Of a stretch of 64,000 bases of DNA, positions 15,973-34,797 are shown piece after piece (the stretch's first letter is position 1; each line of letters begins with the position of its first letter). The notes below the pieces were generated by a model that saw only the letters and a list, made by a program, of their open reading frames with translations, made no database searches and had not been told where the DNA came from. Source of the DNA: a virus (Duplodnaviria > Caudoviricetes); the IMG/VR virus record IMGVR_UViG_3300044506_000032, positions 9,814 through 73,813 of that record. The stretch is one strand, 5' to 3'. The translations under genes were made by a program, and so were the position numbers.

Positions 15973-16230
15973 TCAGACGAGCTGCTCGGGGGCGACGCCG
16001 AAGAAGCGGTGCGGCAGGTCCTCGCCGGACTCGAACCAGGCGTCGAGCGCGTTCACGTCGCGCTGCTCCAGCTCGTCCATGAGCCAGCCCCGGACCATCG
16101 GGACTGCCGGGTCGGTCACGGGCAGGCCTTCGGTGGCGGCGAAGTCGTAGCAGAGCTGCTCGGTGGAGCGGGCGGCGATCTGCTTGCGGATGCCGGCCTC
16201 GGCCTTCGCGGCGCTCTGCTGGGCGGTCAT
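15973..16230 (-). CDS. Hypothetical protein, first gene downstream of switch B
   Basis: GGAGG RBS. Confidence 0.65.
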   Translation of the reverse strand: MTAQQSAAKAEAGIRKQIAARSTEQLCYDFAATEGLPVTDPAVPMVRGWLMDELEQRDVNALDAWFESGEDLPHRFFGVAPEQLV

Positions 16231-16270: not shown

Positions 16271-16333
16271 TTTATAGACCCCTAGAAGATCAAATCAAGG
16301 GGTCTAGAACTGAATCTTCGCGAGGTCTAAAAT
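16271..16333. promoter_or_regulatory. Divergent promoters with TAGACCCC operator half-sites (switch B)
   Basis: TAGACCCCT (16275-83) and AGGGGTCTA (16298-306) inverted; third half-site about 16322-30; TAAAAT 6 nt before ATG 16340 (leaderless). Confidence 0.7.
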
Positions 16334-16339
16334 CCCCCC

Positions 16340-16639
16340 ATGGACCCCACGCCGGCCGAGCTCACACAGACCGCAGTCGACCACGCCCTCGCGATCGACG
16401 ACCCGGCCAACCGCGCCCGCGCCATCACCGGGATCCTCGACGTCATCAAGACCGCCACCCCCGACCTCCAAGCCGCCAGACAGGCCGACATCCTCAAGCT
16501 CCGCGAGGACCACACCCTTCGCGAAGTCGGCGCGCAGGTCGGACTCTCGATTGGGCGAGTCGACCAGATCGCCAAGGGCACGGTCACCGGACGGCGCACC
16601 AAGGCGAAGGCCTCCCCCGCCGGGCCCGACGGCCCCTGA
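16340..16639 (+). CDS. Small HTH repressor-like protein (switch B)
   Basis: TLREVGAQVGLSIGRVDQIAKG HTH; paralogue of 29558-29902. Confidence 0.75.
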   Translation: MDPTPAELTQTAVDHALAIDDPANRARAITGILDVIKTATPDLQAARQADILKLREDHTLREVGAQVGLSIGRVDQIAKGTVTGRRTKAKASPAGPDGP

Positions 16640-16649
16640 CCCCGCCGCT

Positions 16650-16671
16650 TGTCACCCCGGAGTGCGACGAT
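16650..16671 (+). promoter_or_regulatory. RecA-NDp/PafBC-like promoter
   Basis: TGTCAC-N10-GACGAT, 7 nt before ATG 16679. Confidence 0.45.
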
Positions 16672-16678
16672 GCCCGAC

Positions 16679-16873
16679 ATGAACCTGAGCGATGACACTG
16701 TCCGCCGTCTCGAGTGGCTCCACGCCGGCAAGTGGATCTCCGGCTGGGGCGTCGACCAAGCCGAGCTACACGTGTACGGCTTCGACGGTGTCGACGGCGC
16801 CATGAGCCTCGAACTCGGCGAGGCACGTGCGTGGCTGTCCGGCTACATGGCCGGCGTGCAGCGGGCCAGCTGA
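16679..16873 (+). CDS. Hypothetical protein, leaderless
   Basis: GC3 bias; promoter geometry. Confidence 0.55.
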   Translation: MNLSDDTVRRLEWLHAGKWISGWGVDQAELHVYGFDGVDGAMSLELGEARAWLSGYMAGVQRAS

Positions 16874-16963
16874 ACCAACCGGCCCCCGGCCTCTTCCCTG
16901 CTGGTCGGCGCGCCCGTACAGTTGCCCCACTTGCGGGCGCCAGCGGGCCAGTCCCGCAGCGCC

Positions 16964-16998
16964 AGAAAGCCCCCGCCACGCCGCGGGGGCTTTCTGCT
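16964..16998 (+). terminator. Intrinsic terminator
   Basis: 13-bp stem AGAAAGCCCCCGC/GCGGGGGCTTTCT. Confidence 0.75.
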
Positions 16999-17093
16999 GT
17001 TGTCAGCCCCGTCTGCAATGGCCCCTGATCATCCCCTGGACCCGGCACCCGCAGGCTGGCATGCTGCGATCCCACCCCCGGCAGGGAGCACTC

Positions 17094-17474
17094 ATGCCCG
17101 AAGACCCGAACGCGCCGATCGACCAGCTCGCTGCACGCCGCAGAAAGCGCGCAGCGTCAACCACCCAGCCAGAGGAACAGAGTCTGGCCGACCAGACCGT
17201 CGAACGGGCCTCGATATCCCGGGCCTGGGAGGCGGCGGTAGCTGAACACGGCGTGAGCCTGACCAGTCCGGAAGGGGAGGCGTACGCGCGGGGCATCGCC
17301 GACTTCCTGGAGCGTCTCGCCCACGGTGCGATGCTCGTGCGGGACGGCGACCCGACTCGGGGGGTCGCCCCGAATCCGGATGACGGCATGGACCGGGTGT
17401 CGGCGCGGATGCTGGTCGGGCTGGCGAGGGACCTGCGGGACACGCCGGCCATTCTTCGAGCATCCCAGCCGTAA
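17094..17474 (+). CDS. Hypothetical protein
   Basis: AGGGAG RBS; flanked by terminators. Confidence 0.6.
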   Translation: MPEDPNAPIDQLAARRRKRAASTTQPEEQSLADQTVERASISRAWEAAVAEHGVSLTSPEGEAYARGIADFLERLAHGAMLVRDGDPTRGVAPNPDDGMDRVSARMLVGLARDLRDTPAILRASQP

Positions 17475-17478
17475 GCCG

Positions 17479-17505
17479 AAGCCCCCGCTGGTCGGGGGCT
17501 TTCTG
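17479..17505. terminator. Terminator between convergent genes
   Basis: AAGCCCCCG/CGGGGGCTT stem followed by TCTG. Confidence 0.7.
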
Positions 17506-17515
17506 CTGCCCGGAC

Positions 17516-17794
17516 TCAGACGCTCGGCGGTTCGGCCGGCCGCATGGTGCGGTCGCTGTGGCGGATCCAGCCGTAGTCGTTCTCGCCGAGGCCCCAGGCG
17601 GTGTGTGCGGCCCAGCCGCCGTCTATGGTGCGCCGCCACGCGGTGATGATCGCCGGGTGCCATTGGGCGTGGCGGCGGATCCAGCAGATCTGCCACGTCG
17701 AGCGCTCGGTGTCCGGGAGAGTGTCGGAATCGTCGACGGGACGCGCATCGGACCAGCCGGGCCAGCTGTCGGGGGTGCGGTCGCGGCGTGCCAT
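17516..17794 (-). CDS. Trp-rich hypothetical protein
   Basis: ATG 6 nt after an AATAAT -10-like hexamer; SOS-like box upstream. Confidence 0.6.
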   Translation of the reverse strand: MARRDRTPDSWPGWSDARPVDDSDTLPDTERSTWQICWIRRHAQWHPAIITAWRRTIDGGWAAHTAWGLGENDYGWIRHSDRTMRPAEPPSV

Positions 17795-17805
17795 GAGGCC
17801 ATTAT

Positions 17806-17821
17806 TCGATCACGCGTTCGA
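17806..17821. promoter_or_regulatory. Putative LexA (SOS) box
   Basis: TCGATC-ACGC-GTTCGA, one mismatch to the actinobacterial TCGAAC-N4-GTTCGA consensus. Confidence 0.6.
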
Positions 17822-17832
17822 ATGGCCAAATG

Positions 17833-18033
17833 TCACGCAGCCCGGTCGCCGACCAGCAGGTCTCCGTCCGTGAGCGCGAGAATGCCGCGATCCAGGTCGA
17901 TCACGCGGAGAAGTAGGCCGTGCTCGGCGAGGATCTCGGTGGCTCGGCCGCGGAGCTCGACGGGCACGAGGAGCGTGTACTGGTGGTACCAGCCGTCGCG
18001 GGGACTGCTCCGAAATACGACCTTCTCGGACAT
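17833..18033 (-). CDS. Hypothetical protein
   Basis: ATG 18033; protein-like composition. Confidence 0.35.
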   Translation of the reverse strand: MSEKVVFRSSPRDGWYHQYTLLVPVELRGRATEILAEHGLLLRVIDLDRGILALTDGDLLVGDRAA

Positions 18034-18086
18034 GCCAGGAATAACGGTCACAGTCACCGGTGCATGCCCCCAACGCGTGCGACCCC

Positions 18087-18108
18087 TGTCACAGGCCACC
18101 CCTACCCT
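18087..18108 (+). promoter_or_regulatory. RecA-NDp/PafBC-like promoter
   Basis: TGTCAC-N10-TACCCT, 6 nt before ATG 18115. Confidence 0.55.
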
Positions 18109-18114
18109 GCGCCC

Positions 18115-18660
18115 ATGACATCCTCCGCTGCCGACAGCACCGGCCACTGCTCGAAGTGCGACGCCGGCCCCGAAAGGCTCACCTGGGGACATTGCCGGGC
18201 CTGCTGGGCAGCAGTCGTCAGGAAGCGCGGCGAGCGCATGGGCGCTGGCCCGACCGCCCTGTACCGGCTGTTCAACGAGTGGGGTGACCTGCTGTACATC
18301 GGCACCACCGTGGATCCCGCCGCCCGCTGGAAGGATCACCGCAAGCGGATGCCCTGGTGGTACCAGGTCGACCACTCCCGCACGCGGATCGAGTGGCTCG
18401 AGTGCGGCCACGTGGCGGCCCTGCGGCCCGAGCGGGAGGCGATCACCGCTGAACTACCTTGGTACAACCGCGCCGTGTACCAGTTCAACGATGACGGCAC
18501 CGAGGTGTGGCCGAACCTGCCGCCCGGCTGTCCGCCTCAGCCCTGGTACACGCACCGGCCGAAGGCGGAGTACCGGCCGGTGTGGCGCGAGTGGTTCGTG
18601 ATCTTCCGCGACTGCATGCTGAACCCGGAGGAACGCTCAGCCCTGGGCCGCCTCGCGTGA
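18115..18660 (+). CDS. GIY-YIG nuclease family protein with N-terminal Zn finger
   Basis: CSKC..HCRAC; TALYRLFNEWGDLLYIGTT..RW..H; ERxAI..ELPWYN. Confidence 0.8.
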   Translation: MTSSAADSTGHCSKCDAGPERLTWGHCRACWAAVVRKRGERMGAGPTALYRLFNEWGDLLYIGTTVDPAARWKDHRKRMPWWYQVDHSRTRIEWLECGHVAALRPEREAITAELPWYNRAVYQFNDDGTEVWPNLPPGCPPQPWYTHRPKAEYRPVWREWFVIFRDCMLNPEERSALGRLA

Positions 18661-18784
18661 GGCCGCGTGCGGCCCGTAGGTGGCCGAACAGGCGGCGGAG
18701 GCAGCCCGGGGCCAACCGGGCCCTGAAAGCGCCTCAGGGGCGCCACCGTGACGCGCGGACGGCTGCCGCGGCCGCCCGCGCCCG

Positions 18785-19024
18785 TCACTCCCACTCCGGT
18801 CGATGCCGGATAGCAGTGATGGAAGCGAGTGTTCCGCTGACGCTGTCCCCGGCAAGCGAAGTGAACGTGAACCCCGCAACCGCATACGGGTCAACCAGGG
18901 CTTCGAGGGAATCGGCGGCACCGTAGCGATAGTGCTCGATCTCGAAGGAGCCGGCTTGGACTTCGTGCCAGCCGTCATCAAGCTGCACGGCGGTCACCTT
19001 CGGGGGCCTGATCTCGATGTTCAT
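18785..19024 (-). CDS. Hypothetical protein
   Basis: ATG 19024; beta-rich composition. Confidence 0.5.
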   Translation of the reverse strand: MNIEIRPPKVTAVQLDDGWHEVQAGSFEIEHYRYGAADSLEALVDPYAVAGFTFTSLAGDSVSGTLASITAIRHRPEWE

Positions 19025-19148
19025 GCGGCACATCCTGCCGCGTTGCGCCCGAGAGCCGCGGCGGATTCGCAATCACACGCCCGAGCTGCTAAAGGAAGCG
19101 CCCCCGGGAGCCGATGCCTGAGTGAGGATCTCTGCCGAGGAGAGGCGC

Positions 19149-19427
19149 ATGCAGCTGAAGCTGACCGACCTGGTGGGTCGCGAGATCACGCTCGACGACG
19201 AGGACGAGGAGTGGAGGGAAAGCAATCCCTATATCTACCGAGACCGCCGGACGTACTACCGCGGCCGGGTCCTCGCCGTTCAGGTGGCCAACCCGCCGTC
19301 CTTGACCATCCTCAACGCCCGAACCCAGCGGGAACTCAAGCTCAACCCGGATAACTGGACGATCAGGGACGCCGTGACAGACGAACTCCTCACGCCGCTG
19401 GGCGACCTCGACCCGCGCCCCGCCTAG
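19149..19427 (+). CDS. Hypothetical protein
   Basis: GAGGAGAGG RBS. Confidence 0.6.
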   Translation: MQLKLTDLVGREITLDDEDEEWRESNPYIYRDRRTYYRGRVLAVQVANPPSLTILNARTQRELKLNPDNWTIRDAVTDELLTPLGDLDPRPA

Positions 19428-19498
19428 CTCGGCTCGTCGCAGTGGGCGGGTGTGCCGCGCAGTGGCAGACACGCGGCACACCCCGGGGCGGTCGGTTG

Positions 19499-20299
19499 CT
19501 ACGCCGCGTCCGTGAAGCAGCCGCAGCCACCCCAGTCGTCGCGGTCGAAGAGAGACGGCTGGCGGTCGTTGCCAGCCTCGATGCGCTGACGGAGCGCGGT
19601 GAGCGTGAGCGGCTTGGTGTCGCCGCCGGTGCGGTCGCGCAGGATGCTGACGTCCTTGCCGAGCTTCGCCCGCATCCGCTCCTCGAACGCCTCGGCCTTC
19701 GCGTACCGGGCAGGGAAGACGGCCAGCAGCTGCGCCCACTGCGCCTGACCGCCCTTGACGCATGCACCGCCGCAATTGTTGTGCTCGAAGCCGAGTTCGT
19801 ACAGGCGAGGCCGGCGGATGCCAACACTCCTGGCCTCGGCGAAGAGGTCGTGCTTGTCGCGGTACGGGGGTCGGGTGAGCGGAAAGTCGACGGTCCAGGG
19901 CGCCCAGCCGGCGACGATGCCGGGGATGCGGTGGGTTTCGGTCCAGTCGATGCCGACGTGCAGTGTGGTGTCGGCGGGGTCGGTGTTGGCGGTCAGCCAG
20001 GCCCGGCATGGGTCCTGCTTCAGCGCGTGGGAGCACTGGGCGATGCGGGTGTTCCCGATCCACTGCTTGTCTTCGAACACCTGCCAGGGGTCGCGTTCGG
20101 CGGCGTCGGCGACGCGGACGATCTGCATGCCGAGCTGGGCGCTGGCCTCGGCGTTGAACCGGTGGAGGTCTTCGTCCTCGGCGTTGGTGTCGGCAAAGAG
20201 CAGGGTGGTGCTGTCGGTGCCGTGCTCTTCGATGACGTGGCGGGCGGTGGCCCAGCTGGTGATGCCGCCGGACCACATCACGACGTGTCGGGTGGTCAT
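19499..20299 (-). CDS. PAPS-reductase-like PP-loop (AANH) protein
   Basis: VVMWSGGITS PP-loop, LLFADT..ED, CSHALK, PRLYELGFEHNNCGGACVK, C-terminal GCGCF. Confidence 0.75.
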   Translation of the reverse strand: MTTRHVVMWSGGITSWATARHVIEEHGTDSTTLLFADTNAEDEDLHRFNAEASAQLGMQIVRVADAAERDPWQVFEDKQWIGNTRIAQCSHALKQDPCRAWLTANTDPADTTLHVGIDWTETHRIPGIVAGWAPWTVDFPLTRPPYRDKHDLFAEARSVGIRRPRLYELGFEHNNCGGACVKGGQAQWAQLLAVFPARYAKAEAFEERMRAKLGKDVSILRDRTGGDTKPLTLTALRQRIEAGNDRQPSLFDRDDWGGCGCFTDAA

Positions 20300-20405
20300 G
20301 TGGTGCGCCTGCTTTCAGGTGGTTTGTGGCTAATTGTCCCGCATTTTTGGGCGTGCAGGTAGGGCCATGGCGTGCCAACTTGGCTGGCCAGGGGCGGAGT
20401 TCGGC

Positions 20406-21803
20406 TCAGCTGGGCTCTTCATCGCGGGTGAAGTCGACGAATTTCGAGTAGTGCAGCAGAGCGCCCACGGTGATCGTGGCCGTCGGCCCGTTGCGGTGCT
20501 TGCCAACGATCAGGTCAGCCTCGCCGGAGCGCGCGGACTCCTTGTCGTAGGCGTCCTCGCGGTGCAGCAGGATGACCATGTCGGCGTCCTGCTCGATCGA
20601 GCCCGACTCACGCAGGTCAGAGACCACGGGCTTCTTGTCGGCGCGCTGCTCCGGCCCGCGGTTCAGCTGCGACAAGGCGACCACCGGCACGCCGAGTTCC
20701 TTCGCGAGGTTCTTCAGCCCGCGGGAGATGTCCGACACCTCGAGCTGCCGCGTCTCCGCCTTCCCCGCGCCCGAGGACATGAGCTGCAAGTAGTCGACGA
20801 CGATCAGCCCGAGCTTGTGCTTCTGCGCGAGCCGCCGGGCCTTCGTACGGATGTCCATCCCGGTCAGGTTCGACGACGTGTCGATGTACAGCGGCGCCGC
20901 GGTGATGTCCGGGATGCGGTGGGCGATCCGGGTCCACTCGTCGTCGCTCAGCTCGCCCTTGCGGATGTGGCTCAGGTTGACGCGGGCTTCAGCGGACAGG
21001 AGCCGGTCCTGGATGTCGGTGCGGTCCATCTCCAGCGAGAAGACCAAGGTCGGCAGCTTCTGCTGGATACCTACGGCCCGCACGAAGTCGATGGCCAACG
21101 TCGACTTACCCATCGCCGGACGCGCCGCGATCACAATCATCTGACCGGGCCGCAGACCGCCCGTCAACGCGTCCAGGTCCGCAAACCCGGTGGACACGCC
21201 CACAAGCTTGCCCTTGCGCTGCGCCCGCTGCTCCAACTCGTCCAGGTGCGGCTCCATCGTGTCCGCGACCAGCAGCATCTCCTCCTCCGCGCGCTGATCG
21301 GCGACGGTGAACAGCTCCGACTGGGCGGCGTCCACGATCTCGGCAACCTCACCCTCGCCTGCGAGCGCCATCCCCTTGATCCGGTCCCCGGCCTGGGCCA
21401 GCCGGCGAAGCACGGCCTGCTCGTGAACGATCGTCGCGAAGTACTCGGCGTTCGCCGCGGCCGGAGTCGCCTGGACACAGCCGTGCAGGTAGCCGGGGCC
21501 GCCGGCCCGCACCAGGTCGCCCCGCTTCTCCAACTCGCTGGCCACCGTGATCGGGTCGATCGGCTTGTCGGCGGTGAACAAGCGGACGATCGCCATGTGG
21601 ATCGTCTCGTGCCCACGCCGGAAGTAGTCCCGCGGCTTGAGGGTGCCGCAGACGTCCCCGATGACGTCGCGGTCGAGCATCATCGCGCCGAGGACGGCCT
21701 GTTCGGCTGCGAGGTCGTGCTTGCCGTTGTCGGGGATGGTCTGGCCGTCGGGGCCCTGCTCGTTCGGGTCTTCGGCGGGGGGTTCGACGAGGTACACGGG
21801 CAC
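20406..21803 (-). CDS. dnaB: Replicative DNA helicase DnaB
   Basis: AEQAVLGAMM, IAARPAMGKST (Walker A), FSLEM, IVVDYLQLM, ALSQLNR, SDLRESGSIEQDAD, KHRNGP. Confidence 0.97.
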   Translation of the reverse strand: MPVYLVEPPAEDPNEQGPDGQTIPDNGKHDLAAEQAVLGAMMLDRDVIGDVCGTLKPRDYFRRGHETIHMAIVRLFTADKPIDPITVASELEKRGDLVRAGGPGYLHGCVQATPAAANAEYFATIVHEQAVLRRLAQAGDRIKGMALAGEGEVAEIVDAAQSELFTVADQRAEEEMLLVADTMEPHLDELEQRAQRKGKLVGVSTGFADLDALTGGLRPGQMIVIAARPAMGKSTLAIDFVRAVGIQQKLPTLVFSLEMDRTDIQDRLLSAEARVNLSHIRKGELSDDEWTRIAHRIPDITAAPLYIDTSSNLTGMDIRTKARRLAQKHKLGLIVVDYLQLMSSGAGKAETRQLEVSDISRGLKNLAKELGVPVVALSQLNRGPEQRADKKPVVSDLRESGSIEQDADMVILLHREDAYDKESARSGEADLIVGKHRNGPTATITVGALLHYSKFVDFTRDEEPS

Positions 21804-21820
21804 GTGGGTCTCCTGGGTGG

Positions 21821-22798
21821 TCAGGCCGCGGCGGGTGCGGCGTCGGGGTGGCATTCGGTGCAGCGGCGTCCGTCGCGGGCGCGCCAGTGCTTGTTCTTCG
21901 CGGCGGCCGGGTTCTCGGCCAGGCAGGCCGGGCAGGCGGGCGGGAGCAGGCTGGGCGGGCGGTACACGGTCGCGTAGGGCAGCAGGTTCGGGATGCGCTT
22001 CTTGGCGAGGATCTCGGCGGGGTTGTTCATGCCGCCGGGGTTGGTGCAGATCGCCGCGGCGAGTTGGTCGTTGATGGGCCAGCCGAGCCGGTTGGCGGTC
22101 TCGGCGAGTTGGGGGGCGATGGCGGCTGCGTCGGCTGGGCCGAGGGTCCAGGGTGCGGGGAGCCGGCTGAGGAGCAGCTGTGCGCGGTTGATGTTGGGGT
22201 CTGCGGAGCTTCCTCCTCCTCCGTGGTTGCCGGTCGTGGGGGCGGTTCGCTGAGGAGGGAGGGGAGGAGGAGGTTCTACTGACGGTTCAATGACGGTTTG
22301 GCGGACGCCCACGTCCCCCCGCTGTGACGTGGACGTCCCCCCGCTCGTGACGTCCACGTCCGCCCGGACGTCGGCGTCCCCCCGGACGTCCACGTCCGCC
22401 CGCGTGTCACCTGAGCTGGGCTTTCGCCGTCCGCCTCGCGCACGGGAGGACGCCAGCGTCCGGGCGGACGCCCGCGTCCCCTCGTCGTCGCCCGCGCGAC
22501 CACCTGGAACCTTCAGTTCTATCGCCAGGTCGTAGACCTCCGGGCGCTTGTCCGACGGCAGGTGAGCCGTCTTCGACGGGTCCCCGGGGCGGATCAGCTT
22601 GAGCTCGGCCAGGTCCCGAAGATCCCGCCGCACGGACCGCTCGGACTTGCAGGTGTAGGCCGCCAGGGTGGCGAGCGACGGGAACGCGCCGCGCCCCTTG
22701 CTGTCGGCGTGGTTGGCGAGGCCGGCGAGCGTGGCAACGAGCTGGGCGGGCATCGGCGGCGCGTACTTGATGGCCCACTCGATGGCCTCGATGCTCAT
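21821..22798 (-). CDS. HTH replication initiator (lambda O/DnaD-like position)
   Basis: MSIEAIEWA..LANHAD..AFPSLATLA..SERSVRRDL wHTH; internal iterons; adjacent to dnaB. Confidence 0.8.
   Translation of the reverse strand: MSIEAIEWAIKYAPPMPAQLVATLAGLANHADSKGRGAFPSLATLAAYTCKSERSVRRDLRDLAELKLIRPGDPSKTAHLPSDKRPEVYDLAIELKVPGGRAGDDEGTRASARTLASSRARGGRRKPSSGDTRADVDVRGDADVRADVDVTSGGTSTSQRGDVGVRQTVIEPSVEPPPPLPPQRTAPTTGNHGGGGSSADPNINRAQLLLSRLPAPWTLGPADAAAIAPQLAETANRLGWPINDQLAAAICTNPGGMNNPAEILAKKRIPNLLPYATVYRPPSLLPPACPACLAENPAAAKNKHWRARDGRRCTECHPDAAPAAA
22303..22485. repeat. Iteron-like repeats inside the initiator gene (probable origin)
   Basis: Repeated ACGTCCCCCCG, GACGTCCACGTCCGCCCG and GGACGCC units. 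Confidence 0.65.
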
Positions 22799-22871
22799 GT
22801 GAGCTGACTCGATTCGTCGTGCGAATGGATGCAGGGTGCTGCGCCCGACGTTGGCCGGGCGCAGCGGGGCC

Positions 22872-23054
22872 TCAGTGGCTGGCAGGCGGGGTGTTCGGGA
22901 CCGCGGGCGGGTTGCCGGTGACGACGTGCGTCTTCGTGGGCGGCTCGTAGCCGGTCTGCACGTTGGTGTAGCCGAGCTGCTTGGCGGTCTCGGCCGCGTG
23001 CACGGTCGTCGAGGCGGCGCCCGGGGTGCTCGCGGTGATCCGGAAGATGGCCAT
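22872..23054 (-). CDS. Hypothetical protein
   Basis: TGATG overlap with the upstream gene. Confidence 0.5.
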   Translation of the reverse strand: MAIFRITASTPGAASTTVHAAETAKQLGYTNVQTGYEPPTKTHVVTGNPPAVPNTPPASH

Positions 23055-23239
23055 CAGCCGGCCGCCTTCTGTCCGAGGGCGCGGGCGAGGAGACCGCCGA
23101 GGAGGTGCTCGCCGAGCCGGTCGAAGCGGTTGCGGGCGACGGTACGGTCGAGGAGGATCTGCTGGACGCTCAGGCGCGGCGGGGTGGCGGTGCGGCCGAT
23201 CGCGGCGTTCTCGGTCGGCCGGGAGACGAGGGCGCTCAC
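23054..23239 (-). CDS. Hypothetical protein
   Basis: GTGA overlap. Confidence 0.45.
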   Translation of the reverse strand: MSALVSRPTENAAIGRTATPPRLSVQQILLDRTVARNRFDRLGEHLLGGLLARALGQKAAG

Positions 23240-23589
23240 TGCTGGGCCTCCCACTTGCGCTGGGCGGCGGCGAGCTGCGCAACCTGCTTCTCCAGCCCGG
23301 CGAGGAAGTCCCGGAGGCCGGCGATGTGCTGGTCCAGCTCGTGGAGGTTCAGGTCGCCATCGAACGGGCCGTACGAGACGGACAGGCGCGGCTGGGTTTC
23401 GGGGGCGCCGTCCTCGCAAGAGAACAGCTGCGCCGAGGCGAGGGCGTACGGGCTCTCCGACGGTCGGACCGCGGGGATCATGTTCTCGCGACCCCAGTGC
23501 ATATCGTGGATGCCCGCCTCGGCGCACTGGCCGTCCAAGCGGGGGCAGTCGGCGGGGTGGGTAGTGCCAGAGGCAGCAGTAGCTGTCAT
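23236..23589 (-). CDS. DUF6907-like protein
   Basis: HPADCP..C..H..H N-terminus and LNLHELDQHIAGL C-terminus. Confidence 0.55.
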   Translation of the reverse strand: MTATAASGTTHPADCPRLDGQCAEAGIHDMHWGRENMIPAVRPSESPYALASAQLFSCEDGAPETQPRLSVSYGPFDGDLNLHELDQHIAGLRDFLAGLEKQVAQLAAAQRKWEAQQ

Positions 23590-23697
23590 GATGGAGACGT
23601 CTCCAATCTGCACGCGCCTCGGTTACCAGGCCATTTGCGCGTGCGGTGTGATGGATGATTCGAGGGCTCGGTGTTGACGCACCGGGCCCTTGGTCGT

Positions 23698-23946
23698 TCA
23701 GGCGGCGAGCGCCTGGCCGGTCTCGATCGAGACGAGGTCTTCGACCGTCAGGTTGTAGGCGCGGGCGAGGCAGAGCGCGGTCTTGAGGTCGGGGCCGTTG
23801 ATGCGTCGGTGCACGCGGGAGACGACCGCGATGTCGATGCCGGCTCGCCTGCCGATGCGGGTGTAGCTCAGGTCGCCGTCGGGCTTGACGTCCCCGGCCG
23901 CGGTTGCGGCGCTGTGCAGGGCGTCGGCGTTGAAGGTGAGGGTCAT
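23698..23946 (-). CDS. Cro-like XRE HTH protein
   Basis: LSYTRIGRRAGIDIAVVSRV..PDLKTALCLARAY; heads the replication operon. Confidence 0.75.
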   Translation of the reverse strand: MTLTFNADALHSAATAAGDVKPDGDLSYTRIGRRAGIDIAVVSRVHRRINGPDLKTALCLARAYNLTVEDLVSIETGQALAA

Positions 23947-23975
23947 GGGTTTCCCTGGGCGTGAGTGGGTGAGGG

Positions 23976-24042
23976 CTGCACAGCGTTCCTTGTGCTACCC
24001 CAAGGATGGCAGATTCCTTGGGCGTGCACAACTAGTTGTGCA
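23976..24042. promoter_or_regulatory. Operators of the CI/Cro switch
   Basis: CCCAAGGA-N8-TCCTTGGG (23999-24022); perfect palindrome TGCACAACTAGTTGTGCA (24025-24042). Confidence 0.65.
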
Positions 24043-24153
24043 TCCACAATCCACTGATGGGTCGCAGCAAAGCCCCGCCCACCCGTTCCATGTCCGCGCA
24101 CAAACAAGCCGCTATGATGACCGAGCCCAGCCCGCGCAGCCTTGGAGGCCACC

Positions 24154-24558
24154 TTGGACACGACCCCCGCAGGCTTCGGCAAATGGCTTCGTGCCCGCGC
24201 CGCCGAAGCCGGCTTTGACCCAGACGTTCGCGGCAGCCTGTCCGCCCTTGCGACCGCAGCCGGCACAGACCTCGGCCAGACCAGCCGCGCCCTCCAAGGA
24301 AAGATCATCCCCAGCGTCGAGACCCTGCGGGCGTTCGCAGGCCCACTGGGTACCGAGATGACCGAGATGCTCATTCGCTCAGGCAGGCTGGAGCCAGACG
24401 ACCTCCCCCGGGGAACCGTCGTGATCAGTGAAACCGCCGACGTGGCCGCGATTGCCGAGCAGTACGGCGTCCCAGCCGAGCAGCGGGACCTTTTCGGCCG
24501 GCTCGTCGAGGCCGTAGCGCAGCAGCTCGCAACAACCCCGAACCCGACTGGCGAGTAG
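24154..24558 (+). CDS. CI-like immunity repressor (XRE HTH)
   Basis: FGKWLRARA..SLSALATAAGTDLGQTSRAL..PSVETLRAFA..EMLIRSG; GGAGG RBS then TTG; divergent from Cro-like gene. Confidence 0.8.
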   Translation: MDTTPAGFGKWLRARAAEAGFDPDVRGSLSALATAAGTDLGQTSRALQGKIIPSVETLRAFAGPLGTEMTEMLIRSGRLEPDDLPRGTVVISETADVAAIAEQYGVPAEQRDLFGRLVEAVAQQLATTPNPTGE

Positions 24559-24774
24559 CGTTACAGCTCGGCAACTCCCCCGCGCGGCAGGCTGATCGCT
24601 GTCACGCTGCTCCCATCTCGATGCCAGGCGACTGGGAGGCGATGGGTGTGCGCATAGGGCTTGGTTTCGGCTTCGGCCCACTGAGGATCTTCATTCCGCT
24701 CTCCCGAGGCCGTAGGCGCCGTAGGCGACGTCGAGCCACCGCCAGGCGCCGCCGGTAGCTCACCGCCCGAGTGG

Positions 24775-24944
24775 AGCAGGTGCGGAATTCCGTACCTGCT
24801 TGGCCCTGAACATCCCGGATCCGGGATGTTCCTCCAGGCCGACCCGAGATCCCGAATTCGGGATGTTCCCCGTGGGCTACGCCCGTCGGCGCCTGGACGG
24901 CCGCGACCACCTACCGAATTCGGCACCTGATTCGGTAGGTGGTC
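24775..24944. repeat. Cluster of four palindromes/hairpins
   Basis: 24775-24800 (1 mismatch), perfect 24-mer 24808-24831, perfect 16-mer 24849-24864, 15-bp-arm inverted repeat 24905-24944. Confidence 0.85.
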
Positions 24945-25040
24945 CTCCCGTGAGCACGTCGCTGCGCTACCGTTACGACAGTCGGGCCTGCGGCCCGGCC
25001 GCTTGTGAACGCTGCCCCTCAGCGCAGACCAGGAGAACTG

Positions 25041-25331
25041 ATGAGCGAGACCGTCGCCCCCTGGACGATCCAGCGGATCACCGACGCCCTCGGCAGCCCC
25101 GCGGTCCGGCAGCGCTTCCTCGGCGAGCTCAACAGGGCGCAGATCCACGAGATCACCGGGGTCTTCGCGAAGTGGCAGGGCATCGCCGAGCAACTCCTTC
25201 ACGCTGTCGAACGCGCGCACGAATTCCGGGCGGCTGAGCTGGCCGGCGAGCCGATCCCCGGAGACTGGGTCGACATGACCGATCAGATCCGCGAGTGGGC
25301 AGGACAAGCCCAAGCCCGCGGTGCCGCCTGA
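25041..25331 (+). CDS. Putative antitoxin-like protein
   Basis: AGGAGA RBS; WTIQRITDALGS..RQRFLGELN..VFAKW; upstream of a RelE-like gene. Confidence 0.55.
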   Translation: MSETVAPWTIQRITDALGSPAVRQRFLGELNRAQIHEITGVFAKWQGIAEQLLHAVERAHEFRAAELAGEPIPGDWVDMTDQIREWAGQAQARGAA

Positions 25332-25430
25332 TTCTGCGAACCGCCCACCCGCGTCACCGTGAGCGACTAGCCTGTCGCGAGTCGTACCCATAGAGCGCCA
25401 TACGGCGCTGCCGAGCACACGGGACAGCGG

Positions 25431-25679
25431 ATGAGTTACGACCTGCACCTCGACTTTGAGACCCGCACTGTCCTCGGTGACCTGCCGTCGGCGATCCGCG
25501 GCGCGATCTCTGCTGCGTTGATCGATGCGTGTGATGACCCGATCGCGGCGACGCAGCCGCATGGGGAAGTGGACGACGGCATCATGCGGGACCTGGTCGT
25601 CGGCGGCGTGATCGTCGTGGTGTACCTGGGCCATGCGACGAAGGTGATGTCCGTGTTCCAGATCACCGCGCTTACCTGA
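25431..25679 (+). CDS. RelE/ParE-fold-like small protein
   Basis: Y.L.L..helix..ACDDP..TQPHG..MR..VIVVVY..MSVFQI topology; about 82 aa. Confidence 0.5.
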   Translation: MSYDLHLDFETRTVLGDLPSAIRGAISAALIDACDDPIAATQPHGEVDDGIMRDLVVGGVIVVVYLGHATKVMSVFQITALT

Positions 25680-25700
25680 CCTGCGAGCCTCCCGGCGCTC

Positions 25701-25722
25701 TGTCACTGGCCGGCCCTACGAT
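25701..25722 (+). promoter_or_regulatory. RecA-NDp/PafBC-like promoter
   Basis: TGTCAC-N10-TACGAT, 7 nt before ATG 25730. Confidence 0.55.
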
Positions 25723-25729
25723 CGGACAC

Positions 25730-26047
25730 ATGTCCGACCTGCCTGATGACCTGATCCAGTTCCAGCGCGCGATCGACGCGGCCCGTGCCGCGGTCGACGA
25801 GTACGCCGCCAAGATCTCTGCCGAGCGGCGCGCCGAGTTCCCCGATGACGAGCAGATCGTCGAACGGCAGACCTGGGCGCCGGAGCAGGACGCCGAGCTC
25901 GACCGGCTTCGCGCCGCCTACATGGCCGCGTGCCGCGCCAAGTGGGACCACCCAGCGGTCGTGTAGGCGGAGGCCGAGAAGACCCTCCGCGAGCTCGACA
26001 AGAAGCTGATCGCCGCCGCGCGCGCCGAGCAGCCGGCCGCCGGCTGA
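25730..26047 (+). pseudogene. Helical hypothetical protein with in-frame TAG at 25964-66
   Basis: GC3-rich frame continues 26 codons past TAG to TGA 26045-47, followed by a terminator. Confidence 0.5.
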
Positions 26048-26062
26048 CCCCAGACACGACGA

Positions 26063-26095
26063 AGGGCGCCCACCATCGCGGTGGGCGCCCTCTTT
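26063..26095. terminator. Terminator between convergent genes
   Basis: 12-bp stem AGGGCGCCCACC/GGTGGGCGCCCT. Confidence 0.75.
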
Positions 26096-26101
26096 GCTTG
26101 C

Positions 26102-27367
26102 TCAGATCGCGCCGGTGCGCTGCGCGAACTCCCGCAGCCCCGGCACCGTCGACGGCCCGTACAGCAGCCCCGCGGTCATCGCCCGCAGCGCCGGCCGCCG
26201 AACCTCCTCCGGCGCAGCCTGCTCGACCTGGCGCAGCGCGGCGAACGTGCGCTTCTGGTCGCCGAGCCGGTGCCACATCCGCGCCACATCGGTCGCGGCC
26301 CGCGCAGCGCGTTCCGCCGACGTCCACGACACCGCGCCCAACCTGGTCGCGTAGGGCACGCCCTCGTCCGGGGTGCCGAGCGCGTTGTGGACGCTCACCC
26401 AGTACGAGTCGACCTGCGTGGCGGTCGCGTCCACGGTGAACAGCATCCGGCCCGGGGCGGCAGACGCCCGCTCCACCATGCTGCCGGCATGGCCCATCAG
26501 GTCGAGCGCATCGCTGCGCCGCCCGTCGGACGCGGCCGTGTAGGCGGCGGTGAGCAGCATGGTCGCGGCGACAGCCTGCTCAGCCGGGCGGCCGGAGTCG
26601 AGCTGGGTCGCGGTCTGGCGCAGCAGGTCGACGGCGGCACCGGGCCGGCCGGCGCGGCGCATGGTGATCCCGAGGACCCGGGCGGCCTCGCCGATCACCA
26701 CGGGGTCGCCAGAGGCGCGTGCCGCTGTGAGCGCCCGGTCGGCGGTCAACCAGGCCATGTCCGAGTGCTGCTTGAACGCGAGCTCGGTCGCGAGGACGTA
26801 GGCGCGCGCCACGGCCGCCTGCGCCTGCTCCCGGGCCTGTCCCGACGCGGCGTCACGGGTCGCCTCGGCAGCCGCCAGCAGGGCCGGAAGATGCTCGCCA
26901 AGGGCGCCGTATCGGGCCCCGGTGAAGTCGGCCTTGGCGGCGGCCAGACCCTTCTGCAGTCGGGGCAGCGGGACCGCCTCGGCGGCCGGCGGGGAGAACA
27001 GTGCCGACTCCAACCCGGCAGCCGGATCCGCCTGCGCAGGGCGCGGCGTGGCAGCGGCGGCCGGCAGGCCAGCCGCGAGGGAGATGCTGATGCCCGCGGC
27101 TCCAGCAAGTAGTTCTCTGCGGCGCACCGCGTCCTCCTGGGGGTCGTGGCCTGACGCGACCACCCTAGCGAGGCCGAGCCGTGCGGGGTCGATGTCGAGC
27201 ACTGTGGCGAAACGGGCGAGAGTGTCGTGGTTGGGCTGTAAGCGGCCGGCTTCGATGCGGCTGATGCTGGACGCCGAGTAGCCGGTGGCGTGGCCAAGCT
27301 GACCTTGAGTCATGCGGGCTACGGAGCGGGCTCCGCGGATGATGTCGCCGATGTCGAGCGCGCTCAT
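26102..27367 (-). CDS. XRE HTH plus TPR-like helical regulator
   Basis: IRGARSVARMTQGQLGHATGYSASSISRIEAG; Ala-rich helical repeats; ALRQVEQAAPEEVRRP. Confidence 0.85.
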   Translation of the reverse strand: MSALDIGDIIRGARSVARMTQGQLGHATGYSASSISRIEAGRLQPNHDTLARFATVLDIDPARLGLARVVASGHDPQEDAVRRRELLAGAAGISISLAAGLPAAAATPRPAQADPAAGLESALFSPPAAEAVPLPRLQKGLAAAKADFTGARYGALGEHLPALLAAAEATRDAASGQAREQAQAAVARAYVLATELAFKQHSDMAWLTADRALTAARASGDPVVIGEAARVLGITMRRAGRPGAAVDLLRQTATQLDSGRPAEQAVAATMLLTAAYTAASDGRRSDALDLMGHAGSMVERASAAPGRMLFTVDATATQVDSYWVSVHNALGTPDEGVPYATRLGAVSWTSAERAARAATDVARMWHRLGDQKRTFAALRQVEQAAPEEVRRPALRAMTAGLLYGPSTVPGLREFAQRTGAI

Positions 27368-27426
27368 GGTTGCCCTCCCGAGCATGAACGTCTGCGCCCC
27401 TGCATTGACTGTGCGTCAGCCCATCA

Positions 27427-27463
27427 TGCACAGCGCGTGCAGGGTCTGCACAGCGTTTGCAGG
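27427..27463. promoter_or_regulatory. Tandem operator-like repeats
   Basis: TGCACAGCGCGTGCAGG and TGCACAGCGTTTGCAGG, 20-bp period, in the divergent intergenic region. Confidence 0.6.
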
Positions 27464-27564
27464 ACTCCCCCGAACTGTTCCGCACGCCCCTCCCGGCGCG
27501 GTTACCTGGATTCACGCCGGCCGGCGAGCCCAGAACACCAGCCCCCGATCAAGGAGACACCGGT

Positions 27565-28092
27565 ATGACCAGTCCCACCGATCGCCCGCCCGGCCCCATG
27601 CCGCCGTCCGGCGTCCGCGACCCGCGCACACTGCTCACCCCGCACGAGTTCGACAGCGTGGTGACCGTCATCATGGAGGTCAACCGCGGCATGGAGCTGG
27701 CCGTCGCGGAGCGCATCGCCTGCGAGGGCATCAAGTTCGTGACGGTGGCGGCCGAGTTCCCCGACCAGGACATCGCCCCGAGCCGGGTCGTGGACGAGGG
27801 CTGGCACGCCCTGATCCTGAACACGGCCATCTACGCGGCCCTGTGCGAGCGCCTCGGCGGTGGTTTCATCCACCACATCCCCGGCCCCAACGCCACCCAC
27901 TGGGACCCGCCGATCCTGGACCGCACGCGGGACCTGATCCGGCAGGCCGGGTTCACGGTGGACGACGAGCTGTGGGCGCACCCGGAGGACCGCACGTTCA
28001 CGGTGGCGGCGAACTGTCAGCACTCGAAGAACTGCGTGATCAGGCCGATGCCGACGCCGCAGCCGCCCGTGACGGTGGCCGTGGCGGTCTGA
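27565..28092 (+). CDS. GRDP-like (DUF1399-like) domain protein
   Basis: AAGGAG RBS; PSRVVDEGWHALILNT..Y..LC..FIHH motif. Confidence 0.6.
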   Translation: MTSPTDRPPGPMPPSGVRDPRTLLTPHEFDSVVTVIMEVNRGMELAVAERIACEGIKFVTVAAEFPDQDIAPSRVVDEGWHALILNTAIYAALCERLGGGFIHHIPGPNATHWDPPILDRTRDLIRQAGFTVDDELWAHPEDRTFTVAANCQHSKNCVIRPMPTPQPPVTVAVAV

Positions 28093-28131
28093 CGGACCGT
28101 CTACCCTGCTGCCAACGAGAGGAGGCTGGGC

Positions 28132-28290
28132 ATGGAGGAGTGGATCAACCCGCGCTATGCCGAGCTGGTCGCCGCCTTCCGGCGGCAGCAGGACGGAGAC
28201 ACGGATGCGCCCCTGCTCGCCCTGAGCCCGAACGACGCTCCGGGCCCAGGGCGGGGATTCATCACTGCAGGTAGCGCCGCCCCCGAGTAG
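28132..28290 (+). CDS. Small protein (52 aa)
   Basis: GAGAGGAGG RBS; MEEWINPRYAELV..RGFI. Confidence 0.6.
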   Translation: MEEWINPRYAELVAAFRRQQDGDTDAPLLALSPNDAPGPGRGFITAGSAAPE

Positions 28291-28304
28291 GAGGAGGAAC
28301 AGCC

Positions 28305-28415
28305 ATGAGCGACATCCAGATGAAGCACAAGGGTGGCTCGAAGGAGCCGCCGAAGCACCGCGGCAACCCGGCCCCGGAGCCCACGCCGACCCCCACCCCC
28401 GCTCCCTCGAAGTAG
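28305..28415 (+). CDS. Small Lys/Pro-rich peptide (36 aa)
   Basis: GGAGGAGG RBS; MSDIQMKHKGGSKEPPKHRGNPAPEPTPTPTPAPSK; terminator follows. Confidence 0.6.
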   Translation: MSDIQMKHKGGSKEPPKHRGNPAPEPTPTPTPAPSK

Positions 28416-28423
28416 CACCAGGC

Positions 28424-28458
28424 GGCTGGCCCCTCGTGTACGTTGCGAGGGGCCAGCC
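28424..28458 (+). terminator. Hairpin/terminator
   Basis: 13-bp stem GGCTGGCCCCTCG/CGAGGGGCCAGCC. Confidence 0.65.
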
Positions 28459-28470
28459 CCGCGCAAGGAG

Positions 28471-29037
28471 ATGCCAGTGAGTGACCGGTTCCTGATCTCG
28501 TACGAGTCGCGGCACTTCGTGGATACCGACTGGACGCAGCGAGCCGACCGGTGGATGGCCTCGTTCTACACCCAGACGGACACGTCGATCTTCGGGACGG
28601 CTGCGATCACCCGAGTCGTGCCCGGCATCACGCCGAATCCGCGGGTCGCGCTTGAGACGGACCCGGGTCTACTGGACCGCATCCCCCGCGTGATCTTCAC
28701 CGAGGGCGGCGAAATGGTCCCGGCGGTCGCCGATATGCACCCCACCCTGCTGCTCCTCCTCGAATCCGTCGAGGTGAATGAGAAGTGGCGCGGCAAGGGC
28801 GTAGGCATGAGCCTCGCGATCACCGCGCTGCGCCACCTGGCCACAGGGCCCGGTGCTGTCGCCGTTTGCTACCCGGCGCCGATCCACGACCACGGCCCCG
28901 ACGAGCCGTGCTCGTACGACTCGGACGACCCGGAAGTGCGCCGGCCGGACGAGGAGGCGATGGCCAAGCTCCGGGCGGCGTGGGAGCGGCACGGGTTCAA
29001 GCCGATCGGCGAAGGCATCTACGCCATGGCCCTGTAG
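28471..29037 (+). CDS. GNAT-fold acetyltransferase-like protein
   Basis: AAGGAG RBS; LESVEVNEKWRGKGVG (motif A); LRAAWERHGF. Confidence 0.7.
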   Translation: MPVSDRFLISYESRHFVDTDWTQRADRWMASFYTQTDTSIFGTAAITRVVPGITPNPRVALETDPGLLDRIPRVIFTEGGEMVPAVADMHPTLLLLLESVEVNEKWRGKGVGMSLAITALRHLATGPGAVAVCYPAPIHDHGPDEPCSYDSDDPEVRRPDEEAMAKLRAAWERHGFKPIGEGIYAMAL

Positions 29038-29097
29038 CGGGCAGGGCATGAGAAAGCGCCCGCCGCGGCGAACGTGGCGGGCGCCATGGGCCAGCTG

Positions 29098-29595
29098 TTA
29101 GTAGTCGCTCGGGACAGCGACGAAGAGGTTGTGGACGCGGCGTGGGCCGAGGCGGCGCTTCCCCGCCTTCTTGAACGCGCCCTCCTGGACTAGCCGCGCG
29201 CTGTATACGACGGCGGTCCCGTAAGGGATGCCGAGCTGCTCCTCCAGGTCGCGACAGCTGAAGGGCTGATCACCGAAGTGCTCACAGGCGAGAGGGTGGA
29301 GATTCATGGAAGGGAAGCGATCGCCTTGATAGGGCGTCGAGTTGTAGACGACGTTGTGTTCGGGATGCTCCGCAATGATGCTCTCCCGTTCTGCTTCGGC
29401 AGCCTCCTTGCGAGATGAGTACCAGGTCACCTCGTAGGTAGCAACGTTCGGCCACCAAGCCTTGTCGGCGTGGGAGTACCAGCGCTTGGCTGGCTCATCG
29501 CAGATCCCGATGTAGAGCAGTTCGCCGCGCTCGTTGAGGAAGCGATAGAGGGCAACCTCACCCGGGTTCGTCCGATTGATCATTTGGCCCCGCAT
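29098..29595 (-). CDS. GIY-YIG nuclease family protein with C-terminal wHTH
   Basis: VALYRFLNERGELLYIGI..RW..H..WW..AERESI..EHPEHN; start at 29595 or 29583. Confidence 0.8.
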   Translation of the reverse strand: MRGQMINRTNPGEVALYRFLNERGELLYIGICDEPAKRWYSHADKAWWPNVATYEVTWYSSRKEAAEAERESIIAEHPEHNVVYNSTPYQGDRFPSMNLHPLACEHFGDQPFSCRDLEEQLGIPYGTAVVYSARLVQEGAFKKAGKRRLGPRRVHNLFVAVPSDY

Positions 29596-29902
29596 GGCCC
29601 GCAGTCTCACCTGTCTGACCCTCGCCCTTCTTTGGTCGCTTCGAGCCACGGAGCCCCTTCGAGATCTGCTGGGCGCGGGTGAAGTGGATCCCCAGTGCGT
29701 CGCCGATCTCCTGCCAGGTCTTCCCTTGGTTCCTCATGCGAAGGACGCGCTGCTGGCGAATCTCTCGCAGGCGTGCGTGGCTCTCGGGCCAGTTCTGGAG
29801 GACGTCGGTGATCGCCTTGGCGCATGCGGCGTCGTCGTCGATCTCTTCCAGGGCCTTGATGGCGTCCACGAACCTCAGTACCTCCTCTGGCTGATCTGTC
29901 AC
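29558..29902 (-). CDS. Small HTH repressor-like protein (switch C)
   Basis: KTWQEIGDALGIHFTRAQQISKG; paralogue of 16340-16639. Confidence 0.8.
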   Translation of the reverse strand: MTDQPEEVLRFVDAIKALEEIDDDAACAKAITDVLQNWPESHARLREIRQQRVLRMRNQGKTWQEIGDALGIHFTRAQQISKGLRGSKRPKKGEGQTGETAGHAGPNDQSDEPG

Positions 29903-29944
29903 TTCGCGCTCTCCTTTCTCGGACAGGAGAGCGCCACAGCCAGA

Positions 29945-29991
29945 ATGTTAGACCCCCGCTCTTGCTTTCACCTAGACCCCGGGTCTAACTT
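29945..29991. promoter_or_regulatory. Divergent promoters with TAGACCC operators (switch C)
   Basis: TTAGACCCCC (29948-57), TAGACCC-C-GGGTCTA (29973-87); TTGCTT-N18-TAACTT. Confidence 0.7.
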
Positions 29992-30107
29992 GTTCCTTGT
30001 GAGGCCGAACTCCTTGGTCTCCATAGCAACATGCCCCGGCCGGCGCGCCAACGCCGAGACCGGGGCCAGTCCCACCCTCACGCCGCTAAGCCGAGGAGAG
30101 CAGGACC

Positions 30108-30323
30108 ATGCAGAAGAGTACCCAGAACACCCCCTCCGGCGGCAGCCCCGCGCCCGCCGCGAGCAGCGCCGATGCGCTCGCCAACGCCCAGGCCCGCGCC
30201 AACGACATCGCCAACCAGTTCGTCAACGCCTCCCACGCGACCCACGCCGAGCGGGCCGCCATGGTCCAGGACCTCAAGGCCGCCGCCGCCGAGCTCGACC
30301 GTCTCGAACGCGGCGGCGCGTGA
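30108..30323 (+). CDS. Hypothetical protein
   Basis: GAGGAG RBS; first gene of the rightward operon. Confidence 0.65.
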   Translation: MQKSTQNTPSGGSPAPAASSADALANAQARANDIANQFVNASHATHAERAAMVQDLKAAAAELDRLERGGA

Positions 30324-34747: not shown

Positions 34748-34797
34748 CCCACCACCAGCCCACCACCCGACACCCACAGACAAGGAACACACCCGTC

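Follow-up and report, generated by a model that had tools for sequence, protein, structure and literature searches.

Two related small regulators of a tailed phage and their TAGACC-type candidate operators, probably acting as two self-contained cassettes

When one phage genome carries two related regulators, and the same short DNA motif recurs in front of both genes, does each protein keep to its own sites or do the two share them? We addressed this question for a 64,000-nucleotide stretch of the tailed-phage (Caudoviricetes) record IMGVR_UViG_3300044506_000032, from a Streptomyces-type phage of soil, hereafter the window, which covers bases 9814-73813 of a 73,813-bp IMG/VR record with an estimated completeness of 99%. 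Its GC content is 65-75%, and a gene map based on the GC content of third codon positions (GC3) includes a tape-measure-sized gene and packaging genes. The two genes in question, here called B (16340..16639, + strand, 99 amino acids) and C (29558..29902, - strand, 114 amino acids), each diverge from a neighbouring operon. A first-pass annotation of the window had taken them for paralogous helix-turn-helix (HTH) regulators with a common TAGACCC half-site, and had suggested that cross-binding couples the accessory genes facing B to the transfer genes facing C. We arrive at a different reading, to which we assign a probability of roughly 0.65: B and C belong to one uncharacterised family of dimeric regulators of ~90-115 amino acids, and the two genes with their operators form two self-contained, autoregulated repressor-operator cassettes that act independently of each other.

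The paralogy itself was confirmed. B and C share 26 of 78 aligned residues (33%; BLASTP, E 1e-10), and a profile of the C family picks up B within the phage record at E 2e-11, while recovering no third family copy there. Judging by their translations, both proteins consist of an N-terminal helical pair, a C-terminal HTH resembling sigma region 4 and a basic tail. Pfam places a Sigma70_r4/HTH_23-like HTH in both; taking the curated gathering cut-off as the lower bound for membership, B barely reaches PF04545 Sigma70_r4 (24.6 bits, cut-off 24.1), and C stays under the cut-offs of both PF13384 HTH_23 (22.9 vs 24.6) and Sigma70_r4 (15.1 vs 24.1). AlphaFold2 models built with family alignments (predicted local distance difference test (pLDDT) score 84 for C and 85 for B) show the same four-helix layout in the two proteins, namely helix 1, a long helix 2, the two-helix HTH and a disordered basic tail. 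Resemblance to solved structures is limited to the HTH, which is like sigma region 4 as well as generic HTH domains of other kinds, and the best sequence and structure matches of the C-terminal half of C are sigma region 4 chains. Foldseek returned nothing from the PDB at E <= 0.001, and a wide structure search with VIA-align gave generic HTH matches only (Z <= 5.9). A PDB sequence match to 8vd6 ('CAP REPEAT') was taken as compositional, as no matched stretch passes alone.

Homologues of B and C are listed in databases as hypothetical or 'sigma-like' proteins only. We rejected the annotation as RNA polymerase sigma factors that some of them bear: the two proteins have 99 and 114 amino acids, and sigma models match just their C-terminal 35-40 residues. 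Sigma region 2 was not matched in either protein by Pfam or NCBIfam, and the models contain four helices only. GntR and UTRA domains were likewise absent from the Pfam (E <= 10) and NCBIfam (E <= 0.01) results, as was XRE/HTH_3 from those of Pfam at E <= 10, and at 114 amino acids C is too short for an effector domain.

C is predicted to form a homodimer. The prediction scored 0.78 against 0.01 for the best of three controls, a mark that is reached by 20 of 30 proteins solved as one-chain pairs and by 1 of 23 solved as single chains; the runs agreed in at least 98% of contacts, with a partner pLDDT of at least 83. The predicted interface spans residues 4-59, that is helices 1 and 2, and contains family-invariant residues. 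The IDDxA..A.AIT stretch, through which the first-pass annotation had aligned B with C, falls inside it.

How far does the shared motif go beyond chance? TAGACCC occurs nine times in the window, against 2.55 copies expected, and none of 100 shuffles reached nine. Five of the nine (at 16275, 16300, 29949, 29973 and 29981) fall within the two divergent intergenic regions, which total ~240 bp and in which the window-wide expectation amounts to ~0.01 copies. The other four (28665, 31064, 51573 and 58773) are single, partnerless and within coding sequence, and the first 9.8 kb of the phage record, upstream of the window, contain none. The clustering of TAGACCC at both regions is therefore real and non-random, as had been noticed in the first pass.

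To interpret these sites we turned to homologues, which all come from Streptomyces, Kitasatospora and relatives, or from soil metagenomes. Species genomes and IMG/VR contigs supplied C-type genes, as did two sets of 401 sampled Streptomycetaceae genomes each, in which 27 and 45 genomes, respectively, had family matches. The family is of moderate size only, with 406 clusters (50% identity) at E <= 1e-3. We counted 35 homologues of B and 83 of C. Cultured phages and plasmids yielded just one or two weak tblastn matches for each protein, and megablast of the window from 14 to 32 kb against phages and plasmids matched the dnaB region alone.

In 39 distinct C-type loci from genomes and viral contigs, two palindromes stand at approximately -78 and -54 from the start codon, 21-30 bp apart. 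Where both palindromes were detected in loci of the TAGACC clade, the spacing is 24 bp in 13 of 14 cases and 23 bp in the remaining one. The half-site differs by clade, and it does so together with the residues just ahead of the invariant RAQQI of the recognition helix. All 18 loci with an H-x-T at this place have (T/A)AGACC palindromes, and none of the 21 loci with other helices has them; 20 of these are of the AACCC type and one has a miscalled start. Helices with S/T-x-A go with TAAACCC/CAACCC sites 21-22 bp apart, a TPE helix goes with CAAACCCTAGGGCTTG sites 29-30 bp apart, and SPQ-RAQAI goes with TCATCCC.GGGGTTGA. More distant relatives, among them gp56 of the cultured phage OnionKnight and a phage-like plasmid, have a single palindrome of another sequence at the same place, for example TGTAkGGG..CCCmTACA or TAGGGGsCTA. 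Hence the homologues do carry sites upstream, which was the check that the first-pass annotation had named for its motif, and the TAGACC sites appear to behave as operators. Conservation of this kind combined with covariation is, at the level of sequence, the signature of a regulator with its cognate operator, and in the alignments the G at half-site position 3 appears to follow two residues of C, H73 and T75.

In the phage under study the two C operators would be O1 (TAGACCCCGGGTCTA, 29973..29987) and O2 (TAGACCCCCGCTCTT, 29949..29963), at the positions conserved in the 39 loci. O1 is an intact palindrome with one unpaired central base. O2 has an intact outer half and a degenerate inner half, which reads AAGAGCG here vs AAGACCC in relatives; the same degenerate O2 is present in one further locus (L012). 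The first pass had described this region as an abutting palindrome plus a single site. Its palindrome is O1, and its 'single site' at 29949 is in fact the outer half of a second palindrome that is intact in relatives. We read by eye, with conservation as a guide, a promoter of the divergent operon at 29962..29991 (+ strand; -35 TTGCTT, 18-nt spacer, -10 TAACTT), the spacer and -10 of which would be occupied by O1, and a -10 hexamer TAACAT of the C promoter at 29945..29950 (- strand), at the edge of O2, so that O2 would lie over the -10 of C's own promoter. In C-sense sequences, the -35 of the divergent operon maps to a conserved GCAAG block and its -10 to a conserved TA(A/G)CTT block, and every C-type locus has a TAnnnT hexamer directly next to O2. 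Taken together, the conserved blocks fit actinobacterial TAnnnT -10 hexamers abutting the outer half of each operator.

The B operators are of another design. Seven distinct B-type loci could be aligned over the full 100-bp intergenic region, and they share three 10-bp pseudo-palindromes, TAGA-SS-YCTA, at fixed positions. In the window these are s1 (TAGACCCCTA, 16275..16284), s2 (AAGGGGTCTA, 16297..16306) and s3 (GCGAGGTCTA, 16320..16329). The centres of the elements flip between GGTC, CCTC and CCCC from locus to locus, as those of s1 do (CCCC, CCTC, GGTC), while the flanks stay constant; the element thus behaves as a short pseudo-palindrome, as would suit symmetric recognition. A degenerate pattern of the 10-mer gave 29 strand-hits in 700 bp upstream of the genes vs 2 in 88 kb elsewhere. 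Shorter relatives of B have TAGGGGsCTA-type elements, and S-V-P replaces S-I-G in their helix. The inverted pair that had been noted in front of B corresponds to s1 and s2, but the 14-bp distance given for it was wrong (the 7-mers are 18 bp apart, the 8-mers 16 bp), and a third site (s3), GAGGTCTA, which ends at 16329, had been overlooked. Promoters were again read by eye. That of the leftward operon is predicted at 16271..16298 (- strand), with a -35 TTGATT (16298-16293), a 16-nt spacer and a -10 TATAAA (16276-16271); its TTTATAG and GTCAAG blocks are conserved among B-type loci. The predicted -10 of the B promoter P_B, TAAAAT (16328..16333, + strand), is situated 6 nt before the ATG, which implies a leaderless B mRNA, and a TAnnnT hexamer is kept 6-7 nt upstream of the start codon in B-type loci. 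With these assignments s1 would lie over the -10 of the leftward promoter, s3 over that of P_B, and s2 between and over the two -35 regions, at about -38 from both predicted starts. Dyad sites at fixed positions, as expected of an autoregulated repressor, are accordingly found in 39 C-type and seven B-type loci, around promoters whose positions are predicted.

One could object that the TAGACC repeats are not sites of B and C at all, and that they represent promoter elements or sites of a host or other phage factor to which the two genes are close by accident. The outer half-sites do run into hexamers that resemble a -10 (GGGTCTAAAAT, GGGTCTAACTT), and promoter function may account for part of their conservation. 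The inner half-sites, however, have no promoter role and are equally conserved, the sites have dyad symmetry, they travel with the gene into unrelated contexts, and half-site and recognition helix of the adjacent protein change exactly together (18/18 vs 0/21). We therefore consider this objection very improbable.

We propose that the N-terminal helical pair dimerises each regulator, which the C-terminal sigma-region-4-like HTH and the basic tail would complete. A C dimer would bind the two 15-bp palindromes, whose centres are 24 bp apart. At O1 it would cover the spacer and -10 and thereby shut the DUF2637-like/FtsK-like (Spd/Tra-like) operon; at O2, presumably the weaker operator in this phage, it would cover the -10 of its own promoter and limit C synthesis. 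B would bind its three pseudo-palindromes, spaced by 22-23 bp, and so cover the -10s and the -35 zone of both the leftward accessory operon and its own leaderless promoter.

The same layout could serve proteins that mainly activate, or that act as dual switches, from a site near -40 of each divergent promoter. With the promoters called by hand, O2 is centred at about -42 of the operon promoter, O1 at about -42 of the C promoter and s2 at about -38 of both promoters in the B region, and the -35 hexamers are poor. Proteins of this build also have a weak four-helix likeness to Fis (Z 4.4, rmsd (root-mean-square deviation) 5.0, 70 residues aligned) and to Mor of phage Mu (Z 4.4, rmsd 3.3, 47 aligned), and there is a faint PHROG match to a late transcriptional activator (E 0.086). 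Such Z-scores are, however, in a range common for helical proteins. Every predicted promoter has an operator directly over its -10, a repressing position, and in Streptomyces elements it is normally a divergent repressor that keeps Tra-like FtsK genes silent (PMC4447253). Activation, as the main role or as one side of a dual switch, thus seems to us rather improbable, and repression the better account of both cassettes.

Two further loci in which family members reside together bear on whether the cassettes are independent. The first is a Streptomyces prophage (G191:C1, ~6,952,000-6,958,000; loci L051, L072 and L081), just past the lysin gene, where a 5-kb block with a DUF2637 gene and an Mrr-type nuclease gene is bordered by a B-like gene on one side and a C-like gene on the other. 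The second is an IMG/VR contig (L027) in which a third, more distant family member with 30% identity to B is found ~1.1 kb downstream of a C-type gene with TAAACCC operators; this member has a B-like leaderless layout, operators of the sequence AGTGGGnCCCACT, and an orientation convergent to the C-type gene.

Could B occupy the C operators, or C those of B, through the shared TAGACC(C), so that the transfer-like operon and the accessory arm are controlled together? Identical 7-8-mer half-sites are indeed present in both regions, and each C half-site agrees with a B element at 8 of 10 positions. In the G191 prophage, moreover, the two genes L051 and L072, 5 kb apart, show no mutual BLASTP match yet have a common operator core, TAGGGGTA..CCCCTA. 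This is, however, the sole other close co-resident pair among ~800 Streptomycetaceae genomes, and in L027 the operators of the co-resident cassettes are not shared. The half-sites are 10 bp, or one helical turn, apart in C and abutting in B, a 5-bp difference. Given a 10-bp element on the one side and a 15-bp palindrome on the other, only half-site contacts would be available for cross-binding. In place of the H-x-T of TAGAC-reading C proteins, B also has S-I-G. Every B-type locus and about half of the C-type loci use TAGAC, which puts the chance of sharing at ~0.5 in this phage and, as an estimate, at ~0.15 for both pairs together; as the majority half-site of both clades it is expected to be shared through ancestry, and it probably reflects an ancestral specificity common to the two. 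Finally, a match to the B profile (E <= 0.01) was seen in none of 15 C-type viral records, and a C-type gene in none of five B-type records. With no record among these 20 that showed both types, each operator set appears to function with its own protein.

The comparative data (0 of 20 records with both types, the geometry and the helix residues) thus do not support the coupling of both arms by cross-binding in the form in which it had been put forward. Cross-binding is not needed to explain the data, although cross-talk via the common half-site is possible. That B and C are coupled, be it by mutual recognition of TAGACC or by mixed dimers through the IDDxA..A.AIT interface, and separately from a CI/Cro-type switch, we hold to be unlikely, if somewhat less so than activation. 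Were it true, the Spd/TraB-like transfer operon would switch together with the accessory arm, and such coupling would have evolved independently a second time in the G191 pair with its common TAGGGGTA..CCCCTA. Without comparative support for cross-talk, the finding is a less surprising one: most likely, the B and C cassettes act independently.

Several points weigh against this conclusion. Both co-resident pairs of closer family members, in this phage and in the G191 prophage, share an operator core, which hints at coupling. Among the 20 viral records several are incomplete (CheckV 32-78%), and two of the searches for B in C-type records returned nothing, not even the records' own C genes, so that absence of a B-type gene there is weak evidence. 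The covariation of helix and operator is clade-structured and stands for a handful of evolutionary events, not for 39 independent ones. As regards repression, the hand-called promoters also put the centre of each operator near -38 to -42 of the opposite promoter, a classic position for an activator, which makes a dual role as repressor and activator conceivable, and a strict sigma-70 consensus scan of both regions called none of the hand-called promoters. Lastly, the stoichiometry of B on its 10-bp elements is unexplained by this reading.

What would the cassettes control? Downstream of O1, the operon that C faces begins after a leader of ~110 nt with an open reading frame (ORF) of 71 amino acids (30108..30323, + strand) with a visible ribosome-binding site, GAGGAG. 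Further small ORFs are followed by a phrog_10376 gene (31635..32603, +; PHROG E 2.4e-29) and then by a gene for an FtsK/SpoIIIE-like, TraB-like protein (34219..36951, +). The G191 homologue of the phrog_10376 protein is a DUF2637 (Spd-like) protein (34% identity, E 4e-24 by tblastn; the G191 gene matches PF10935 at E 4.6e-5). The first pass had C facing a conjugation operon, which the match of the FtsK/SpoIIIE-like protein to phrog_31069 (E 1.1e-91) supports; this protein has no match in Pfam or NCBIfam, and around nine other family loci tblastn (E 1e-5) turned up no homologue of it inside 20 kb. The partner conserved at other C-type loci is a phrog_35187/10376 (DUF2637-related) gene, followed by a terminase within 8 kb.

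The leaders on both sides of the C operators fold. In the C leader a hairpin at 29906..29934 (- strand; -24.8 kcal/mol, z -2.97) has a 9-10-bp stem that pairs with the ribosome-binding site GGAGAG, and synthesis of the regulator may thereby be controlled at the level of translation. Comparable stems can be seen in several C-type loci. The divergent-operon leader holds two GC-rich hairpins within 30001..30066 (+; 30001-30021 and 30033-30066; fold z -2.9). The second is kept in 14 loci, and 5 of its 11 pairs show compensatory changes. It lacks a U-tract and might serve as a site of attenuation or processing, or stabilise the RNA. An Rfam search of 29500-30400 gave no meaningful match, and the only call of a terminator scan at C was O1 itself.

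On its other side B faces an operon of small unannotated genes. The first of them on the GC3-based map encodes 85 amino acids (15973..16230, - strand), and a VWA-like gene (15028-15645) and a MazG-like gene (13376-13930), both with Pfam and PHROG matches, are located farther along. A 74-amino-acid ORF without a family match in Pfam, NCBIfam or PHROG (16649..16873, +) would be co-transcribed with B. Some 90 bp past it, at 16966-16996 (+), a GC-rich stem followed by CTTTCTGCTGT resembles a terminator of the two-gene B operon, uncalled by the terminator scan. The genes that flank B-type cassettes have almost no matches in Pfam, NCBIfam or PHROG and, in an all-against-all BLAST, are unrelated from locus to locus; B's targets can therefore not be named from its relatives, and the B-type cassette looks, from its neighbourhoods, like a portable module. 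A metagenome scan for B-type loci found three only. The closest B homologues (P0085-P0088) are 73-85% identical to B, and their contigs are the best candidates for further phages with both B and C. A B-like leaderless cassette with the operator GTAAGGGGACCCCTTGC is also carried by NZ_CP109172.1 (87.8 kb, filed as a circular plasmid). This replicon is probably a phage-plasmid, because it encodes an endolysin-type amidase, a Bet recombinase and an integrase.

GIY-YIG endonuclease genes are found near both cassettes. One (17920-18660, +) is ~1.3 kb past the B stop codon, and the other (29098-29649, -) overlaps the 3' end of C, where the C tail departs from the family. The two proteins are 42% identical over 78 amino acids (E 3e-13). 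GIY-YIG homologues adjoin family members in four other loci as well (L006, L031, L061 and L067); in L006 and L031 the endonuclease gene sits between two tandem family genes, and the C-type copy of L006 is reduced to residues 43-94. This arrangement suggests that homing endonucleases drive cassette replacement, which could explain why there are two cassettes in one phage.

With these results the family is given, on sequence grounds, a proposed job, DNA targets and two residues that track specificity. Its naturally distinct protein-operator pairs, with TAGACCC, TAAACCC, CAAACCC, TGTATGGG and TAGGGGsCTA, could be of use as orthogonal switches in Streptomyces. C is a concrete and testable candidate regulator of a phage-borne FtsK/TraB-like module, a role that GntR-type TraR has in plasmids, and through it experiments can address when a hyphal DNA-transfer system would be expressed by a tailed phage.

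How do the two cassettes compare with known systems? With sigma-70 region 4 and LuxR/GerE-type HTH domains the likeness is confined to the HTH, which in B reaches Sigma70_r4 and in C has sigma region 4 chains as its best matches. With 99-114 amino acids and no region 2 the proteins are not sigma factors, and sigma factors have no counterpart of their N-terminal dimerisation helices. Fis and Mor/C of phage Mu resemble them in having ~100 amino acids, a dimer core of helices 1-2, a C-terminal HTH and ~15-bp dyad sites. Mor and C of Mu are activators. With weak structural scores (Fis 1etk, Mor 1rr7; Z 4.4) and no relationship in sequence, this is more probably an architectural resemblance than membership. 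The closest annotated phage homologue is gp56 ('DNA binding protein') of Streptomyces phage OnionKnight, with 41% identity over 71 amino acids (E 5e-6). Membrane-protein genes diverge from its gene, and a palindrome and a GCAAG block lie upstream, but its operator sequence, GGTGTCGGGTAGCCGACACC, is different and its function unreported.

CI and Cro of phage lambda at OR offer a closer parallel in layout, as the cassettes are likewise predicted to combine a dimeric repressor with several dyad operators of unequal strength, about two helical turns apart, each over one of two back-to-back promoters. The leaderless mRNA predicted for B also has its counterpart in that of cI from PRM (PMC10491246). 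The B and C cassettes differ in that they have no XRE/HTH_3 domain and no antagonistic second regulator within the cassette, that their two or three sites are of different design, and that there is no evidence for a cleavable or inducible domain.

In kil-kor systems the controlled gene is lethal or toxic once the kor gene is removed. Those of the TraR/KorA type, known from Streptomyces conjugative plasmids and AICEs (integrative and conjugative elements of actinomycetes) such as pSVH1, pIJ101, pSN22 and pMEA300, have a small autoregulated repressor divergent from the spd/traB operon and repeated operator sites within the intergenic region (PMC4447253, PMC2440964). C differs from these repressors in that it has 114 amino acids, a sigma-region-4-like HTH, no effector domain and no GntR match, and in that it is encoded by a tailed phage. 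Its position and layout are the same, with O1 and O2 between C and a DUF2637-related/FtsK-SpoIIIE-like operon, and C thus appears to occupy the place that GntR-type TraR/KorA has in Streptomyces plasmids, from a different protein family.

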